IMG/VR virus record: IMGVR_UViG_2740892209_000010
DNA: 34,107 nt
Reading direction: 5' to 3' (one strand)
From: a virus
Lineage: Duplodnaviria > Heunggongvirae > Uroviricota > Caudoviricetes
Shown here: one piece after another, positions 1-25,870 of the stretch
How the letters are laid out: every line of letters starts with the position of its first letter
Numbering within the stretch: position 1 is the first letter of the stretch
Translations under genes and position numbers: made by a program
Notes under the pieces: model-generated
Databases searched by the model: none
What the model was told of the DNA's origin: nothing
What the model saw: only the letters and a program-made list of their open reading frames with translations

Positions 1-318
1 GTGAAAAAGATAGCTGCTATATCATTAATTAGTGTTTTTCTTATGTCTGGTTGTGCTGTGCATAATGATGAGACAAGTATCGGTAAATTTGGCCTTGCAT
101 ATAAAAGTAATATTCAGCGTAAACTCGATAACCAATACTACACCGAAGCCGAAGCTTCTTTAGCCAGGGGTAGAATATCTGGTGCAGAAAATATAGTAAA
201 AAATGATGCAGCTCATTTCTGTGTTACTCAGGGCAAAAAAATGCAGATAGTTGACCTGAAGACAGAAGGTGCAGGATTACATGGCGTCGCTCGTCTGACA
301 TTCAAATGTGGAGAGTGA
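1..318 (+). CDS. yegR: Small lipoprotein, host flank (YegR-like, 105 aa)
   Basis: ORF-track protein begins MKKIAAISLISVFLMSGCAVHN: signal peptide with lipobox L-M-S-G-C. Lies outside the prophage att repeat. Assignment to yegR is from recalled E. coli K-12 gene order (yegR - P2 remnant - yegQ), not from a search. Start codon is GTG at position 1, so the true start could lie upstream of the window. Confidence 0.55.
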   Translation: MKKIAAISLISVFLMSGCAVHNDETSIGKFGLAYKSNIQRKLDNQYYTEAEASLARGRISGAENIVKNDAAHFCVTQGKKMQIVDLKTEGAGLHGVARLTFKCGE

Positions 319-756: not shown

Positions 757-1770
757 TTACTCTACTGTGGACACTGTGTGGACACTCTCGGCTTCAGTAC
801 CACCTCTTAGCGGATTAAGAGAAATGGCGTCCTGAAGGTACTCTGGCGCAAAATGAGCGTAAACCATAGTTTGCTCAATCCGCGTGTGACCTAGTATCCG
901 TTGTAGCGTGATAATACTTCCTCCATTAATCATGAAATGAGTGGCAAAGCTGTGCCTTAGTGCATGTGTGGCTTGCCCCGTTGGCAAATCCGGTTTTATT
1001 GCTTTCATTGTTCGTCTGAAGCGAGGGTAATCAGCATCAGGGAATAAAAAACCTCGTTTGTTATCCGCGATCATTTTGGCAACAGCCTCTGAGATCGGGA
1101 CGGTGCGTGGTTTGTTTGTTTTCGTTTTAACAAACGTGACGCGGTTATGGATGATATTTTCTGCTTTCAAACGAGCTGCTTCTCCCCAACGTGCTCCTGT
1201 ACTCAGGCAAAGAATCGCAATCTTTTTATTGTCGCCGTCAAGTGCTGCAAGCAGTAAGGCAATTTCTTCCTGTGTGAGATAGCCTGTTTCTGGTTTTTCC
1301 TCCTTAAGCCTCTTTGTCCCTCTGATAGGGTGCTCACCAAAGAATAACTCCGCTTCAATCAGGGCTGTAAACATGCCGCTAATACATGTTAAATCACGAT
1401 TGATACTCGAAGGTTTAATACCCTGACTTCTTCGGGTGGCGCAGTACTGGCTGATAAGGGATTTCGTGATTTGAAATGCGCATGGGTCATTCGTTATTTT
1501 TGTGAAGATTTCAATTTTTCCAAGATTAGATTTCCCATGCTCTTCGTGTTTACCCTTTAAATCCCACCAGATCTGTGTCAGTTCCGACAGACGTCGTTTG
1601 TCTGTTGGTTTTGATAGCCATTCTTTATTGTGGTGGTTGTACAACGTGTATTTTTCGAAAGCGACAGCTTCGCTTTTCTTATCAAACTTCCTACGGATGC
1701 GTTTTCCGTTACGTCCAGTAGGGCGGATGTCCACTTCATATCGACCATCATCGAGTTTTTTGATTGCCAT
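757..1770 (-). CDS. int: Tyrosine integrase (P2 Int family), 337 aa
   Basis: Minus-strand ORF adjacent to attL. C-terminal region HALRHSFATH...LGHTRIEQTMVYAHF carries tyrosine-recombinase R/H/R/Y-type motifs. 337 aa equals P2 Int length. Confidence 0.93.
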   Translation of the reverse strand: MAIKKLDDGRYEVDIRPTGRNGKRIRRKFDKKSEAVAFEKYTLYNHHNKEWLSKPTDKRRLSELTQIWWDLKGKHEEHGKSNLGKIEIFTKITNDPCAFQITKSLISQYCATRRSQGIKPSSINRDLTCISGMFTALIEAELFFGEHPIRGTKRLKEEKPETGYLTQEEIALLLAALDGDNKKIAILCLSTGARWGEAARLKAENIIHNRVTFVKTKTNKPRTVPISEAVAKMIADNKRGFLFPDADYPRFRRTMKAIKPDLPTGQATHALRHSFATHFMINGGSIITLQRILGHTRIEQTMVYAHFAPEYLQDAISLNPLRGGTEAESVHTVSTVE

Positions 1771-21739: not shown

Positions 21740-23869
21740 ATGAGCACAAAATTCAGAACCGTTATCACCACTGCCGGTGCAGCAAAGCTGGCAGCGGCAA
21801 CCGCGCCGGGAGGGCGGAAGGTCAACATTACCACGATGGCCGTCGGGGATGGCGGTGGTAAATTGCCTGTCCCGGATGCCGGACAGACCGGGCTTATCCA
21901 CGAAGTCTGGCGACATACGCTGAACAAAATCAGCCAGGACAAACGAAACAGTAATTATATTATCGCAGAGCTGGTTATTCCGCCGGAGGTGGGCGGTTTC
22001 TGGATGCGAGAGCTTGGCCTGTACGATGATGCGGGAACGTTAATTGCCGTGGCGAACATGGCCGAAAGTTATAAGCCAGCTCTTGCCGAAGGCTCAGGGC
22101 GTTCGCAGACCTGCCGCATGGTCATCATCGTCAGCAGTGTGGCCTCAGTGGAGCTGACCATTGACACCACAACGGTGATGGCGACGCAGGATTACGTTGA
22201 TGACAAAATTGCAGAGCATGAACAGTCACGACGTCACCCGGACGCCTCGCTGACCGCAAAAGGTTTTACTCAGTTAAGCAATGCGACCAACAGCACGTCT
22301 GAAACACTGGCCGCAACGCCGAAAGCGGTAAAGGCCGCCTATGACCTGGCTAACGGGAAATATACTGCGCAGGATGCCACCACCGCGCGAAAAGGTCTTG
22401 TCCAGCTCAGTAGTGCCACCAACAGTACGTCTGAAACGCTCGCCGCAACACCAAAAGCGGTAAAGGCCGCGTATGACCTTGCTAACGGGAAATACACTGC
22501 ACAGGACGCCACCACAGCGCGAAAAGGTCTTGTCCAGCTCAGTAGTGCCACCAACAGTACGTCTGAAACGCTCGCCGCAACACCAAAAGCGGTAAAGGCC
22601 GCGTATGACCTTGCCAACGGGAAATACACTGCACAGGACGCCACCACAGCGCGAAAAGGTCTTGTCCAGCTCAGTAGCGTCACCAACAGCGATTCTGAAA
22701 CGCTTGCGGCAACGCCAAAGGCGGTAAAGGTCGCGTATGACCTTGCTAACGGGAAATACACTGCACAGGATGCCACCACAGCGCGAAAAGGGCTTGTTCA
22801 GCTCAGTAGCGCCACCAACAGTGATTCGGAAACGCTGGCCGCAACACCAAAAGCGGTGAAGTCTGCCTATGACAATGCTGAAAAACGTCTTCAGAAAGAT
22901 CAGAACGGTGCGGATATTCCTGATAAAAGATTATTCCTGCGCAATATTGGAGCAACAAATTCAACAACCATGTCTTTTAGTGGTGGTACAGGATGGTTCA
23001 GGCTGGCAACTGTAACCATGCCACAGGCCAGTTCCGTGGTTTACATAAGCCTGATTGGTGGTGCTGGATATAATGTTAACTCCCCTATGCAGGCTGGTAT
23101 ATCTGAACTTGTTCTTCGTGCGGGAAATGGAAATCCAAAAGGTCTTACTGGTGCGTTATGGCGACGGACCTCGGTTGGATTTACTAATTTTGCATGGGTG
23201 AATACATCCGGTGATACCTATGACATTTATGTAGAAATAGGTAATTACGCCACAGGTGTTAATATCCAGTGGGATTATACAAAGGATGCAACTGTACAAA
23301 TTCATACATCACCAATTTATACAGCGAATAAACCAACAGGCCTGACAGATGGAACTGTATATGTAATTTACAGTTCGCACATTAAACCGACTGCTGCTGA
23401 TGTTGGGGCGTTGTCATTATCTGGAGGTCAATTGAATGGTGCACTGGGCATCGGAACATCCAGTGCTCTTGGCGGTAACTCGATTGTTTTGGGTGATAAT
23501 GACACGGGCTTTAAACAAAATGGCGACGGTAATCTGGATGTTTATGCTAATAACGTTCATGTTATGCGCTTTGTCTCCGGTAGCATTCAAAGTAATAAAA
23601 CCATAAATATTACGGGGCGTGTTAATCCCACAGATTACGGTAACTTTGATTCCCGCTATGTCCGGGATGTCCGGCTTGGTGGTGCTGCCACATACAAACC
23701 TGCGAACAATGGCATGACATGGACACATCAGGCACCGTCCGGGTGTGTATATTCCGGCATTATTGTTCAGGATACCGGCTCAAACTCTGCCGATAACATT
23801 GGTGGCGTATATTACAGACCGGTTCAGAAATACATTAACGGGACATGGTATAACGTGGCGCAGGTATAA
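21740..23869 (+). CDS. H: Tail fibre protein H, 709 aa, with internal 44-aa tandem repeats
   Basis: Position after I. Conserved GC-rich N-terminal part, repeat array, then an AT-rich C-terminal part. P2 H is 669 aa; the 40-aa difference is close to one repeat unit. Confidence 0.85.
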   Translation: MSTKFRTVITTAGAAKLAAATAPGGRKVNITTMAVGDGGGKLPVPDAGQTGLIHEVWRHTLNKISQDKRNSNYIIAELVIPPEVGGFWMRELGLYDDAGTLIAVANMAESYKPALAEGSGRSQTCRMVIIVSSVASVELTIDTTTVMATQDYVDDKIAEHEQSRRHPDASLTAKGFTQLSNATNSTSETLAATPKAVKAAYDLANGKYTAQDATTARKGLVQLSSATNSTSETLAATPKAVKAAYDLANGKYTAQDATTARKGLVQLSSATNSTSETLAATPKAVKAAYDLANGKYTAQDATTARKGLVQLSSVTNSDSETLAATPKAVKVAYDLANGKYTAQDATTARKGLVQLSSATNSDSETLAATPKAVKSAYDNAEKRLQKDQNGADIPDKRLFLRNIGATNSTTMSFSGGTGWFRLATVTMPQASSVVYISLIGGAGYNVNSPMQAGISELVLRAGNGNPKGLTGALWRRTSVGFTNFAWVNTSGDTYDIYVEIGNYATGVNIQWDYTKDATVQIHTSPIYTANKPTGLTDGTVYVIYSSHIKPTAADVGALSLSGGQLNGALGIGTSSALGGNSIVLGDNDTGFKQNGDGNLDVYANNVHVMRFVSGSIQSNKTINITGRVNPTDYGNFDSRYVRDVRLGGAATYKPANNGMTWTHQAPSGCVYSGIIVQDTGSNSADNIGGVYYRPVQKYINGTWYNVAQV
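22253..22880 (+). repeat. Tandem 132-bp (44-aa) repeats inside tail-fibre gene H, about 4.7 copies
   Basis: Units begin at 22253, 22385, 22517, 22649 and 22781 (last partial). Peptide unit ARKGLVQLSSATNSTSETLAATPKAVKAAYDLANGKYTAQDATT; units 2 and 3 are almost identical at nucleotide level. Confidence 0.85.
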
Positions 23870-23872
23870 TTT

Positions 23873-24400
23873 ATGCAGCATTTGATAAATATAACGGTGG
23901 GTAATCCAAAAACGGTTGAACAATATCAATTGACAAAGGACTTTGATGTTGTCTGGTTTTTTTCAGAAGATGGTAAGAACTGGTACGAAGAACAAAAGTA
24001 TTTTGCTGATGACACGATAAAAATAGCGTACGACAAAGATAATATTATCCGCTATGTGGAAAAGGATGTGACAGCTATCAGACCAGATGGATTAAGTGTT
24101 GTTGAAGTGCCGGATATTACCGCTAACCGACGGGCGGACATTTCAGGGAACTGGATGTTTAAAGACGGCACAGTGATTAAACGAATTTATACGGCGGAGG
24201 AATTGCAGCAGCAGGCAGAAAATCGGAAAGCCAGACTTCTTGCAGATGCTGAATCCGTGATTTTGCCGCTGGAGCGTGCTGTCAGGCTGAATATGGCAAC
24301 AGATGAGGAACACAGCCGACTGGAGGCTTGGGAACGCTATAGCGTTCTGGTCAGTCGTGTGGATCCTGCAAATCCTGAATGGCCGGAAATGCCGCAATAA
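23873..24400 (+). CDS. G: Tail fibre assembly chaperone G, 175 aa
   Basis: 175 aa equals P2 G; immediately after H. Confidence 0.8.
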
Positions 24401-24451
24401 GTTGTATGAGCTCTGGTGGGAGCTTACATATCTATGGCACAGAGTAAAGCC

Positions 24452-24487
24452 TAATCTGACAGTCCGCTCTGTGCCAAAAACGGACAT
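24452..24487. repeat. Left copy of 36-bp inverted repeat bracketing the G-FI accessory cassette
   Basis: Reverse complement of 24452..24487 aligns to 25653..25688 with 30/36 identities, including a 12-bp perfect block (gactgtcagatt). Confidence 0.6.
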
Positions 24488-24604
24488 GTCAAAGCGCAGA
24501 GTGAATGGCTAAGTCTAGCTCATTAGAAATGTTCGCTTCATGAAAATGGCTGCAGCAAGGATCTATCTCACTGCGGCCTCTTTACAATAACGAAATTTTG
24601 CGAG

Positions 24605-25360
24605 CTATTCCTTGGCCTCTTTATTTTTCTCGCCATCGCCAATGTAAAGAAGATAATCGTTTAAGGATATCCTTCCGGAGGGGCCGGTCCATGTTATCAA
24701 TCCGTTCTCACGAAGATTAAATAATGCTTCCATGAACTCATTATCGTTAAAAGAATGATCCTCTGAGAACAGAATGTTCATTTTTCTCAATAGTTCTTCC
24801 ACTTTAATCTTTTCATATCGCCTTATCAGACTTAGTGCTTTACGACGCATTAAGATTGTAGGTACTGCTTGTGAACGAATGGTTTTTTGTATTCCACTAT
24901 CAAGAACTTTCTTGATCTTGCTCTCTAACTCTTTGATTTTAGTTTCATTATCTCCATTGGACTTAAGCTTTTCATCAACGATGCAAATAATTTCCTGACT
25001 AATGCTGTTCTTGAGGTTGTTTATTTTTTCTTCATTGTTGAGAATCTCATCAGAGCTTCCTGCATGGGGTTTTTTCCATATGTGCTGACGCATATCCGTT
25101 ACCGTATCTCTCATCATAGAGAATGTATCTGAATATAACTTGTCAAATATTTTTTCCAGTCGTTCGACACTTGCCTGGATGTCTTTTGCTGCTTTAGTTG
25201 TCTCTTTAGAAGCCTCATTCGACATTTTATAAAAAACAAAAGAAAGCCAAATAGCCCCAATGGCGAGTACTAATGAGGCTATTGTGGCAATAAAACCTAT
25301 TATTGTTATTGCTGTATCTAATGTGCCTGCTGCATCTGTGACTACTGTTTCTGCTGCCAT
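24605..25360 (-). CDS. Accessory cargo protein 3: N-terminally membrane-anchored, coiled-coil-rich protein of unknown function, 251 aa; opposite strand to the flanking tail genes
   Basis: Minus-strand ATG at 25360 with GAGGA RBS. One hydrophobic helix (TAITIIGFIATIASLVLAIGAIWLSFVFY) followed by a highly charged Lys/Glu-rich region. AT-rich. Occupies the P2 Z/fun position between G and FI. Confidence 0.75.
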   Translation of the reverse strand: MAAETVVTDAAGTLDTAITIIGFIATIASLVLAIGAIWLSFVFYKMSNEASKETTKAAKDIQASVERLEKIFDKLYSDTFSMMRDTVTDMRQHIWKKPHAGSSDEILNNEEKINNLKNSISQEIICIVDEKLKSNGDNETKIKELESKIKKVLDSGIQKTIRSQAVPTILMRRKALSLIRRYEKIKVEELLRKMNILFSEDHSFNDNEFMEALFNLRENGLITWTGPSGRISLNDYLLYIGDGEKNKEAKE

Positions 25361-25652
25361 ATATCCTCAATATTTAACCATACAGGGTAGCGTGTTTTAA
25401 CCGCGGGGAAGTCGGGGTGGTGACACCCTAGCCTTACCCCGATTCCAGAGTATTTATTTATCATACCATTGAAACTATTTAATTTTATCGAAAATTTTGT
25501 CAGAGCGTGACTGAAAAGTCTTCAGCACGTCAAGCATATCGTCGCCGTTCAATTAACACTGAGCCTTTTCTTAGAGGGGTGGGCTGCGCAGTTGCGAGGT
25601 TATGCCCCAGTTCCTAGTTCCTCACTACATTCTAATTAAGCCGGCCAACTAA

Positions 25653-25688
25653 ATGTCCGCTTTTCGCTCAAAGCAGACTGTCAGATTT
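25653..25688. repeat. Right copy of 36-bp inverted repeat bracketing the G-FI accessory cassette
   Basis: atgtccgcttttcgctcaaagcagactgtcagattt; 83% identical to the reverse complement of 24452..24487. Confidence 0.6.
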
Positions 25689-25870
25689 GATAGCGTTTGG
25701 GCTATGTAAATTGTCAGTTGGAAAATGAGTGAGTGCAAATCATGGCAGGCTGGCGGATTACCCGCCTTTTCTTTGTCTGTTGTTTCATCCCCTGACCAGC
25801 CAGGTCAAATAGCGTCTCATGCTCTGCACAACAGAAAATAGTTGCACCCATTAACCACGGAGTTAAACGG

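Follow-up and report, generated by a model that had tools for sequence, protein, structure and literature searches.

Inverted repeats around a cargo gene between G and FI of a P2-like phage as probable ends of an old transposase-less cassette

A reverse-strand cargo gene lies between the tail gene G and gene FI in the P2-like phage DNA studied here (a stretch of 34,107 nucleotides, analysed as a whole and called the window below), and inverted repeats stand on both sides of it. Do these repeats mark a unit that arrived at this locus as such, or has the region diverged in place? The initial annotation proposed a discrete mobile or recombinogenic cassette and left three variants side by side: a MITE-like footprint, an invertible segment, or conserved recombination targets. 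We evaluated these readings using repeat statistics, profiles of related repeats, and comparison of occupied, empty, and unrelated loci.

Extent and parts of the inverted repeats

The repeat itself was reproduced as first described. The reverse complement of 24452..24487 matches 25653..25688 at 30 of 36 positions, a perfect 12-bp block included, and a repeat search of the window recovered the same inverted pair (35 nt, 86%). The 9-bp palindrome reported next to it is exact (GGCACAGAG at 24436-24444, CTCTGTGCC at 24467-24475). The inverted repeat exceeds chance expectation. When a 3.2-kb region was shuffled 60 times, the best inverted match over 36 nt had 22-28 matching positions (median 24), and the Smith-Waterman score of the repeat was 45, compared with 15.3±2.2 and a maximum of 25 in 500 shuffles. 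Exactly two copies of the degenerate core AATCTGACAGTCYGCTYTGWGCSA are present in the 34-kb window, where 0.00 are expected.

The full extent of the repeat was set by a profile of about 92 nt made from related copies. This profile matched the window at 24398-24489 on the plus strand (E=6e-19) and at 25742-25650 on the minus strand (E=9e-19), and its alignment placed the ends of the terminal repeats at 24403 (TGTA...) and 25737. The 36-bp repeat is thus the inner third of two terminal inverted repeats of about 88 nt, or arms, at 24403-24489 and 25650-25737. The 1,237-bp unit that had been delimited from the 36-bp copies was drawn too narrowly; according to the family profile, it is nested in a 1,335-bp element whose arms extend outward. 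In the window, the left and right arms are 84% identical over the inner 37 nt and 58% over the outer 50 nt, and because the outer halves are so little alike, only the inner part is visible by eye. The arms of canonical copies are about 70% identical to each other in both their outer and inner parts. Pairwise alignment within the window alone gives weak similarity outside the 35-bp core, and the longer arms become convincing only via the family profile. Each end carries two CTGACAG motifs about 34 nt apart, and the tip reads TGTATTAGC. The parts of the element and its surroundings are as follows.

24396..24402, no strand: left 7-bp target duplication AATAAGT, decayed; includes the G stop codon TAA (24398-24400)
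24403..24489, plus strand: left (L-type) terminal inverted repeat, with tip TGTATGAGCTC... and inner end ...AAAAACGGACAT
24436..24475, plus strand: stem specific to L-type ends, GGCACAGAG, 22 nt, CTCTGTGCC; the local palindrome of the initial annotation
24453..24487, plus strand: inner core of the left arm, CTGACAG motif and palindromic module GTCCGCTCT-GTGCCA-AAAACGGAC
24605..25360, minus strand: cargo ORF, 251 aa
25474..25503, minus strand: weak sigma-70-like promoter match 5' of the cargo gene (9/12 positions)
25650..25737, minus strand: right (R-type) terminal inverted repeat, with tip (reverse complement) TGCACTCACTC... and inner end ...AAAAGCGGACAT
25653..25687, minus strand: inner core of the right arm, module GTCTGCTTT-GAGCGA-AAAGCGGAC
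25738..25744, no strand: right 7-bp target duplication AATCATG, decayed
25752..25775, plus strand: intrinsic terminator GGCGGATTACCCGCC-TTTTCTTT from a terminator scan, outside the element

Relative to canonical ends, the left arm is 66% identical to the L-type in its outer part and 89% in its inner part, and the right arm is 64% and 92% identical to the R-type, respectively. The number of sigma-70-like sites matching at 9/12 positions in this region is not above that in shuffles. The FI late promoter region lies just 3' of the G-operon terminator (pF activator site and start site from the P2 annotation).

The cargo ORF is the only one in the element and has no recombinase domain (ORF list, Pfam). 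Its product has a hydrophobic N-terminal stretch and was assigned to phrog_36054, annotated as "unknown function"; it gave no Pfam match above the cut-off and no significant PADLOC match. The GC content of the ORF is 33-39%, versus 54-60% in FI. A nearly identical locus (97.9%) is found in Peduovirus P22H4 and phage 9W.

Empty and occupied sites at gene G and related ends elsewhere

The element lies at the stop codon of the tail-fibre assembly gene G, before the G-operon terminator and the FI late promoter. Five relatives (L018, L033, L082, L040, and L073) have an empty site, with neither arm present. Three of them (L018, L033, and L082) read CAATAAAT followed at the insertion point by ACAGGCGGGCGG, with a G-FI spacer of 128 nt; the others are L040 (ATAGAGGC 3' of the stop) and L073 (117 nt). 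The target at the empty sites is one AATAAAT, and the terminator comes directly after the G stop. In the 40 occupied P2-like loci, the flanking 7-mers agree at 4-5 of 7 positions, a decayed duplication throughout. The initial annotation had suggested searching for target-site duplications outside the repeats, and such 7-mers do flank the tips: the window's own pair, AATAAGT/AATCATG, agrees at only 4 of 7 positions, and the other P2 loci agree at 5 of 7.

A search for alternative cargo between the same repeats in relatives, also suggested there, was productive. Between a common left flank of 87 nt and a common right flank of about 90 nt, the P2-like loci carry about 35 cargos that are unrelated to one another and 1.0-4.4 kb long; many are genes for anti-phage defence. 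Homology breaks off sharply on the cargo side, at about 24487-24490 on the left and about 25653-25662 on the right. The outer arm halves are diverged and P2-specific, and they are common to the P2-like loci whatever the cargo.

Related ends are widespread outside P2. The exact core was found in 14 species-representative genomes with no G, FI, or H homologue near it (the genera include Erwinia, Morganella, Pantoea, Yersinia, Xenorhabdus, Klebsiella, Enterobacter, and others), in 68 plasmids, and in 1,736 of 5,426 complete E. coli genomes, where it occurs in islands among other places and in at most 3 copies per genome. The canonical tip is present in more than 120 viral contigs, with lambdoid prophages among the carriers. 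Matches to the full profile of about 92 nt are mostly convergent pairs around 0.5-6 kb of cargo. There are 24 such pairs when the first set of P2 loci is left aside. In 15 of them the TGTA...TACA tips are immediately flanked by perfect 7-bp direct repeats, representing 10 different 7-mers, and in two more the repeats are imperfect (one 6/7, one 5/7). Several of the perfect duplications are one insertion seen in related phages, and four of the 24 pairs share their contig with genes for H, G, or FI homologues, so the number of independent duplication events is nearer 10. Many of the target 7-mers (GCTAAnn, or TATTAGC on the opposite strand) are similar to the tip of the element, a likeness that would also be compatible with a site-specific recombinase whose overlap is 7 bp. 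Wherever both arms of a pair could be classified (33 pairs in P2, 16 elsewhere), an L-type arm is matched with an R-type one; neither LL nor RR pairs were seen.

The cargos between these ends include PARIS-like AAA_15/DUF4435, TIR, Cap15 receptor, SMEK, reverse transcriptase, RES, RelA/SpoT, pPIWI nuclease, and Mrr-STAND genes. No DDE, rve, or HUH transposase was found by Pfam among about 85 cargo proteins. The only recombinase among them is a fragment-like tyrosine recombinase ORF of 228 aa (L013), which has degraded relatives in a Xenorhabdus cassette and is not common to other cassettes. A search for an autonomous partner with a tip-only profile over about 2 Mb of loci gave only truncated or IS3-interrupted arms.

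These comparisons support the view that the window cassette is a discrete transposon-like unit and did not diverge in place, as the initial annotation had proposed. The arms are missing at empty sites and surround about 35 unrelated cargos at occupied ones, homologous arm pairs with 7-bp duplications enclose unrelated cargo at unrelated loci, and one cargo is common to a P2 and a non-P2 context with its breakpoints inside the arms. Two of the proposed variants, the MITE-like footprint and the conserved recombination targets, fit this picture.

Proposed origin of the cassette and turnover of its cargo

We consider it probable that the repeats are the inner ends of an old transposase-less cassette that was inserted once and whose cargo has since been swapped via the cores. 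Such an element would be non-autonomous, with cargo and no transposase, like a mobile insertion cassette (MIC) or a cargo-bearing MITE. It would have entered the ancestor of this P2-like group in a single ancient event, at an AATAAAT holding the G stop, falling between G and the G-operon terminator and duplicating the 7-mer. The empty-site comparison and the target duplications of the family together show this step. That there was one old insertion in P2 is argued by the 40 pairs that share the 4-5/7 decayed duplication and by the P2-specific outer arms. We infer transposition from its footprints alone.

Since the insertion, the outer halves of the ends have drifted, and the element at the P2 locus is probably no longer mobile as a unit. 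The inner cores, in which CTGACAG is followed by a 9+6+9 palindromic module with the loop GTGCCA in the left arm and GAGCGA in the right arm, have remained near the family consensus, and we propose that this is because the cargo was repeatedly replaced by recombination of the cores with those of family members in phages, plasmids, and chromosomes. The locus would then act as a docking site at which unrelated accessory genes, many of them anti-phage, succeed one another while tail-gene expression goes undisturbed.

One clear case and one partial case suggest that cargo is swapped by recombination in the arm cores. Over 1,966 nt, the cargo of one P2 locus (L066) has 99% identity to a cassette in a contig (L167) from which the P2 tail genes are absent and whose outer arms are unrelated. 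On both sides, identity climbs from some 25% to over 94% within the stretch between arm positions of about 62 and 78. In the partial case (L053 and L089), the shared stretch begins at arm position 49 and extends only 62 nt into the cargo.

The symmetry of the L066/L167 breakpoints, which fall at the palindromic module on both sides, also bears on another explanation. The inner modules could be dedicated site-specific recombination sites that support a natural form of recombinase-mediated cassette exchange, either in place of transposition or on top of it. In each module, 9-bp half-sites would flank a 6-nt spacer (left GTGCCA, right GAGCGA). With unlike spacers, a left site could not recombine with a right one, but each could do so with sites of its own kind elsewhere. 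The loop sequences are indeed fixed for each side across the family, and the outer and inner half-sites share the consensus GTCCGCTYY. On a plasmid, an element of the IS110 family, known for targeting specific repeats, lies in the module loop. The title of a 2004 paper from the laboratory behind an earlier annotation of such repeats (see below) likewise invokes site-specific recombination. Nevertheless, we regard this explanation as unlikely. No recombinase is consistently associated with the cassettes, the one small tyrosine recombinase among about 85 cargo proteins being the sole candidate, and within a locus the variants of the left inner end show no co-variation with those of the right (permutation p=0.44). 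The 7-bp duplications outside the tips and the 50-nt outer parts of the arms would be left unexplained, and the breakpoints have been mapped in one pair only. To our knowledge, none of the hix or gix sites, Tn3-type repeats, the Mu left end, or the P2 cox box is close enough to the core.

The arms might instead belong to the phage's own regulation, as terminators, insulators, or stems for RNA processing that pair across the cargo, and owe their conservation to a protective role in late tail-gene expression. Several features of the arms are in line with this. The L-end stem is conserved, with changes that are wobble-compatible on the strand of the G-operon transcript; the left flank folds better than shuffles (z of -2.3 for the plus and -3.4 for the minus strand); and the right arm was flagged as resembling a terminator when read on the minus strand. 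Across 70 distinct L-type arms, 90.6% of cells in the stem are paired, versus 24-45% with a shifted partner, and the substitutions are G.T-compatible on the plus strand, with a few compensatory ones. The stem is absent from R-type arms (45% pairing). However, phages with the empty site have no arms and keep the true terminator, and the arms occur with target duplications in plasmids and chromosomes. The left-arm stems have no T tract 3' of them, the inner hairpin lacks covariation, and long-range pairing lacks co-variation within loci. We therefore find a regulatory origin of the arms distinctly improbable. The initial annotation had named a related reading, in which repeats present at the homologous locus whatever its cargo are accounted for by a conserved bidirectional terminator. 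The first half of it holds, as the repeats are there regardless of cargo; the terminator half does not, because the true terminator is the separate hairpin at 25752-25775, which is found at empty sites too.

Narrower candidate roles for parts of the arms were rejected or, for the inner hairpin, found no support. As a terminator, the left arm was not flagged, and the right arm was flagged on one strand alone, the minus, where its T tract (tail ATTTAGTTGG) is poor. As a selected RNA or DNA stem, the inner hairpin GTCYGCTYT/RRAGCGGAC shows no sign of matched changes: C and T at position 16 are found opposite A and G equally, and T is no more often faced by A at position 29 than C is. For long-range pairing, or arm ends matched within each cassette, identity was 8.72 of 13 within loci and 8.68 between loci (p=0.44). 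As for a coding origin, the arms hold short ORFs (MSVFGTERTVRL, MSAFRSKQTVRF), and five of the six arm differences fall at codon positions 1-2. The arms had no match to Rfam families.

A further possibility is that every P2 cargo came by its own transposition into the same preferred target at the G stop. Several target 7-mers of the form GCTAAnn do indicate some target preference, and the perfect duplications elsewhere imply fairly recent transposition. But the P2 loci share their diverged outer arms and the decayed duplication regardless of cargo, and the canonical outer arm was not seen at the G stop in the first set of loci, so we hold repeated insertion to be very unlikely.

The invertible-segment variant, with the repeats as crossover sites of a Hin/Gin/Pin or FimB/E-type system that flips the cargo gene, is hardly credible: it has in its favour the perfect 12-bp block in inverted repeats around a gene and its promoter, and a sister lineage whose G-FI interval contains an invertase together with an invertible tail-fibre segment, but the unit has no recombinase gene, the arms are missing from the invertase lineage, no two cargos among 52 loci match on the minus strand, so that no cargo was seen in both orientations, and in 33 P2 loci the L-type arm is always on the left and the R-type arm always on the right.

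If an old insertion followed by cargo exchange is taken as the preferred reading, the anatomy of the locus is that of a fossil transposon insertion whose arm cores are common to hundreds of cassettes in phages, plasmids, and chromosomes, with at least one cargo caught in two contexts and its breakpoints within the arms. It is possible, if somewhat doubtful, that the arms define a new Enterobacterales family of transposase-less "moron transposons" with asymmetric ends of about 90 nt, 7-bp duplications, and inner modules whose differing spacers make them portable exchange sites. Were this so, defence and accessory genes would be shuffled among docking sites in P2-like and lambdoid phages, plasmids, and genomic islands, which would offer a mechanistic answer to cargo turnover at phage "hotspots". 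Clusters of anti-phage genes at hotspots have been amply documented in P2-like phages and other mobile elements. The defence hotspots of P2 and P4 hold accessory and defence genes at fixed sites, and the mechanism of rapid gene exchange there was stated as not known; the P2 hotspot analysed in that work adjoins cos and is a different locus from G-FI (Rousset et al., 2022, PMC9122126). The arm profile has a practical use as a probe, too: convergent pairs yield small cassettes enriched in known and candidate defence genes, and the 251-aa cargo of the window is among the cassette genes retrieved by the arm-pair scan.

Relation to known systems

The repeats at the P2 Z region are already annotated and are not new in themselves. 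GenBank entry AJ512685 (P2-EC67 proviral Z-region) lists a "left inverted repeat" at 3..115 and a "right inverted repeat" at 1255..1345 (113 and 91 nt), between G and FI and around a different ORF. The window aligns with this entry at 95% over 79 nt in the left flank and 93.5% over 216 nt in the right flank, and the end of the annotated right repeat coincides with the empty-site boundary. The repeats are thus homologous and at the same locus, but the cargo in the window is different and on the other strand. P2 itself has both arms around fun(Z). The entry is reportedly linked to a 2004 article by Nilsson, Karlsson, and Haggard-Ljungquist in Mol Biol Evol. Full-text literature searches by arm sequence and keywords, whose coverage did not extend to the text of the 2004 Z-region paper, returned nothing on these repeats. 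The wider family of ends with its duplications may be undescribed.

Phage morons and the T4-type promoter-early stem-loop cassettes resemble the cassette in placing accessory genes between conserved phage genes with short conserved flanks. What defines a moron is a promoter and a terminator of its own rather than inverted-repeat ends with duplications.

The pdif modules of Acinetobacter, and engineered cassette exchange, share with the cassette inverted palindromic sites with a 6-nt spacer and non-identical ends, and pdif modules are also discrete cargo exchanged between replicons. However, the pdif model covers neither the target duplications nor the long outer arms. Compared by eye with the XerC/XerD consensus and E. 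coli dif, the cassette shows no evident resemblance.

In the form of its ends, the cassette is similar to Tn552, the IS21 family, Mu, and Tn7-type elements, which have TG(T) tips and long, distinct left and right ends with sub-terminal repeats. A short duplication of fixed length, here 7 bp, is a further likeness to Tn552 and IS21; the lengths are 6-7 bp for Tn552, 4-8 bp for the IS21 family, and 5 bp for Mu and Tn7. The likeness lies in these features; no transposase/ATPase gene pair was found between or near the ends of the cassette.

There are parallels in organization with MICs and cargo-bearing MITEs, which likewise combine terminal inverted repeats, a target duplication, and passenger genes at many loci with no transposase of their own. 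Examples include MIC231 of Bacillus cereus, integron mobilization units, and the Tn3-derived TIMEs, which, unlike the cassette, have been traced to a known parent IS or transposon. The cassette is further set apart by its long asymmetric ends (about 88-92 nt, L and R), its sub-terminal CTGACAG motifs, and the turnover of its cargo at fixed sites.

The inverted repeat and its earlier record

The window is a P2-like (Peduovirus) prophage, and the features of its G-FI interval are as follows.

to 24400: end of tail-fibre assembly gene G
24398-24489, plus strand: left arm, as matched by a profile built from copies outside P2
24605-25360, minus strand: cargo ORF, 251 aa
25742-25650, minus strand: right arm, matched by the same profile
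25752-25775: intrinsic terminator, a separate hairpin (terminator scan)
25871: start of tail-sheath gene FI

The 36-bp inverted repeat of the initial annotation was borne out, with 25653-25688 matching the reverse complement of 24452-24487 at 30/36 positions, including a perfect 12-bp block, and the 9-bp palindrome described at 24436-24444 and 24467-24475 is exact. The repeat lies far above chance level: inverted 36-nt matches reached at best 22-28 positions in 60 shuffles of the 3.2 kb around it, the arm-against-arm local alignment scored 45 versus 15.3±2.2 in shuffles, and a degenerate core occurred twice in the window against 0.00 expected. The repeats extend to ends of about 88 nt, and the profile found exactly two arms in the window. 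These two arms are 84% alike over the inner 37 nt and 58% over the outer 50 nt; compared with the canonical ends (the arm consensus from non-P2 copies), the inner part is 89-92% alike and the outer part 64-66%.

Others had annotated the Z-region repeats before, so that the finding in its original form is not new. Among the partial database matches that carry annotation, the best is GenBank AJ512685 ('Bacteriophage P2-EC67 proviral Z-region'), whose features include a 'left inverted repeat' at 3..115 and a 'right inverted repeat' at 1255..1345 flanking a different ORF on the other strand, and both arms are present in phage P2, around fun(Z). Papers citing the annotating laboratory's work speak only of a variable 'Z region'. 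The window element is a further member, with new cargo, of a family of cargo-bearing inverted-repeat cassettes, whose range, duplications and part in cargo turnover may be undescribed so far and are worth following up.

Empty and occupied P2-like loci

For comparison we used 80 loci from viral contigs, fetched by the FI N-terminus. Five are empty: neither arm is present, and the G stop codon lies inside a single AATAAAT, followed directly by an intrinsic terminator (GGCGGGCGGATTGCCCGCC-TTTT) and then the FI promoter region. At the occupied loci, about 35 inserts (1.0-4.4 kb, mutually unrelated) are alternative cargos between the same repeats; all these loci have in common the 87 nt that follow the G stop and the ~90 nt that precede the terminator, and homology stops sharply where the two 36-bp repeats end on their inner side. 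Since empty sites are without arms and the arms are common to unrelated cargos, the G-FI segment is an insertion relative to the empty site. The discrete mobile or recombinogenic cassette first proposed for this region is supported by the same two observations and by copies elsewhere.

Two other readings raised initially did not hold. An invertible segment was rejected because no cargo was found in both orientations among the P2-like loci compared, and the few fixed left/right arm differences keep to their own side in all loci. Nor are the arms a terminator, as the true terminator is the separate hairpin at 25752-25775, which is kept at the arm-less empty sites.

In a sister P2-like lineage (L037 4053-5941, also L070), the G-FI interval is a true invertible tail-fibre switch: in place of the arms it has three genes, one for a Hin/Gin-type DNA invertase (MLIGYVRVSTNDQ...LSTLYKKFP) and two that are inverted, a second tail-fibre assembly gene and a tail-fibre C-terminal segment. 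The window's own tail-fibre gene H (21740-23869) contains, at 22210-22860, 4-5 tandem units of ~132 nt (44 aa; ...ARKGLVQLSSATNSxSETLAATPKAVKxAYDLANGKYTAQDATT), which also give rise to successive 40-aa ORFs in a different frame. At another P2-like locus (L059 1849-4969), the G 3' end and left arm are tandemly duplicated, giving two different cargos serially with a single right arm, as expected for unequal exchange between two phages. A further Z locus (L013 3313-5872) has an additional truncated canonical arm 89 nt inward of the left arm. Among the cargo genes there are one for a DUF5677 protein and a tyrosine-recombinase-like ORF of 228 aa, which has degraded relatives in a Xenorhabdus cassette (L093).

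Copies outside P2, their targets and cargos

An exact 24-nt core was found in 14 species-representative genomes (Erwinia, Morganella, Pantoea, Yersinia, Xenorhabdus, Klebsiella, Enterobacter, Lelliottia, Intestinirhabdus and one Alteromonadales-like bin), none of which has a G, FI or H homologue near it within the 8 kb fetched; the arms are not P2-specific. Similarity between arms and between loci reaches ~92 nt in the non-P2 copies, and the canonical end reads, tip to interior, TGTATTAGCTCAGACTTGAyCTGACAGTTTT...ATCAAATCTGACAGTCTGCTTTGAGCGArrAGCGGACrTT, with two CTGACAG motifs ~34 nt apart. Profile matches outside the window are mostly convergent pairs enclosing 0.5-6 kb of cargo, with contexts that include sites downstream of carB in Klebsiella spallanzanii, on a Pantoea chromosome, on Yersinia, Salmonella and Klebsiella plasmids, in islands of E. 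coli at leuX and at a tRNA-Gly gene, and at the Q-to-lysis 'moron' site of lambdoid prophages. The canonical end was matched in 1,736/5,426 complete E. coli genomes, 68 plasmids and >120 viral contigs. One arm-like match (L086 876-955, Neptunicella sp. MAG) is in a metagenome bin assigned to a marine Alteromonadales genus, through possible contamination or possible transfer; all other copies are from Enterobacterales.

Target duplications outside the repeats, a further point raised initially, were found in the family and only as a 4/7 match in the window. Perfect 7-bp direct repeats lie immediately outside the TGTA...TACA tips in 15/24 pairs outside the first P2 set (four of the 24 on contigs also bearing P2-type tail genes, and some the same insertion in related phages), each with a chance probability of ~1 in 16,000 at a fixed position; they comprise ten different 7-mers (e.g., GCTAATA, CACTATT, CATAAAT, GATTAAG, TTTCATG), and of the remaining pairs one matches at 6/7 and another at 5/7. 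The window 7-mers are AATAAGT (24396-24402, holding the G stop codon) and AATCATG (25738-25744), and 40 P2-like loci have the same 4-5/7 pattern. This uniformity, the single AATAAAT when empty and the P2-specific outer arm halves common to all cargo types point to a single old insertion in this phage lineage rather than many. A Pantoea chromosomal element (L088 1582-7838, 6,257 bp) and one on a viral contig (L149 214-4366, 4,153 bp) have the same duplication, GCTAACT, and unequal lengths, and may mark a second docking site with in-place cargo exchange.

Insertion sequences interrupt several arms. On plasmid NZ_CP065834 (L224 9001-10745), the IS110-family ISEsa2 lies in the inner-palindrome loop of a canonical arm (...TTTGAGCG, IS, AAGCGGACATT), and since the same 73-nt truncated arm match recurs on a dozen or more large plasmids of Klebsiella, Salmonella and Enterobacter, ISEsa2 may target the arm module. 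Family arms are also interrupted by IS629 in SpLE5 of E. coli O157:H7 Sakai (L101 8001-8078) and by IS3 on a viral contig (L182 2993-3032).

The cargo contents are those typical of defence or accessory genes: AAA_15/AAA_21 with DUF4435 (PARIS-like), TIR, Cap15-type receptor, SMEK, reverse transcriptase, RES, RelA/SpoT, FRG, HNH, Mrr, pPIWI-associated nucleases, DUF4365, Mrr-STAND, TolA-C lipoprotein, nucleotidyltransferase, and a fluoride channel with its riboswitch. The ~85 cargo proteins examined included no transposase. The window's 251-aa protein had no Pfam match above cut-off and no significant PADLOC match, and falls in a PHROG of unknown function; G+C is 33-39% in this cargo versus 54-60% in FI. 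The family's commonest cassette (L117 4409-4804 and 71 other viral contigs; 462 nt between arms) encodes a 131-aa lipoprotein bearing a TolA C-terminal domain (PF06519, phrog_5772) and lies, in lambdoid prophages, between the lysis genes and a gene for a Q-like antiterminator, adjoining a second TolA-like lipoprotein gene. The Klebsiella spallanzanii chromosomal cassette downstream of carB (L098 5632-7830; perfect duplication GCTAATA) contains, along with a fluoride riboswitch (RF01734), a ClC-type channel gene and an ORF of 120 aa, so the family also moves non-defence cargo.

Proposed cargo exchange and the two ends

Over 1,966 nt, the cargo of one P2 locus (L066) shares 99% identity with a cassette on a contig (L167) that has no P2 tail genes and whose outer arm sequences are unrelated; on either side, identity rises from ~25% to >94% from arm position ~62 to ~78. 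Locus L053 and an Intestinirhabdus chromosomal copy have in common only a stretch that begins at arm position 49 and ends 62 nt inside the cargo. These comparisons, mainly one clear case, fit replacement of cargo by recombination inside the conserved inner arm. Inner cores would be refreshed at every exchange and outer arm halves would merely decay, which would explain why the window's inner parts are nearer to each other and to the canonical ends than its outer parts. Exchange may proceed by homologous recombination over 25-35 bp or by a dedicated site-specific reaction at the palindromic module; the fixed, unlike loops at the two ends and the symmetric L066/L167 breakpoints favour the latter, and the lack of any associated recombinase speaks against it.

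Each classifiable element (33 P2 loci and 16 others) has an L-type arm (loop GTGCCA) at one end and an R-type arm (loop GAGCGA) at the other; LL and RR pairs do not occur, so the ends are functionally distinct. The 9-bp palindrome belongs to the L end: pairing is 90.6% across 70 distinct L arms versus 24-45% with shifted partners, and R arms do not have it. Substitutions in it stay G.T-compatible on the inward-reading strand, with a few compensatory changes. No covariation was seen in the inner 9+6+9 palindrome or, within loci, between left and right inner ends, and no Rfam family matched the arms. The family probably moves by transposition. The distinct L and R ends resemble those of transposons having left and right ends; a possible likeness of the arm ends to Tn552 or IS21-type ends, and of the arm modules to pdif modules, serves as a lead only.
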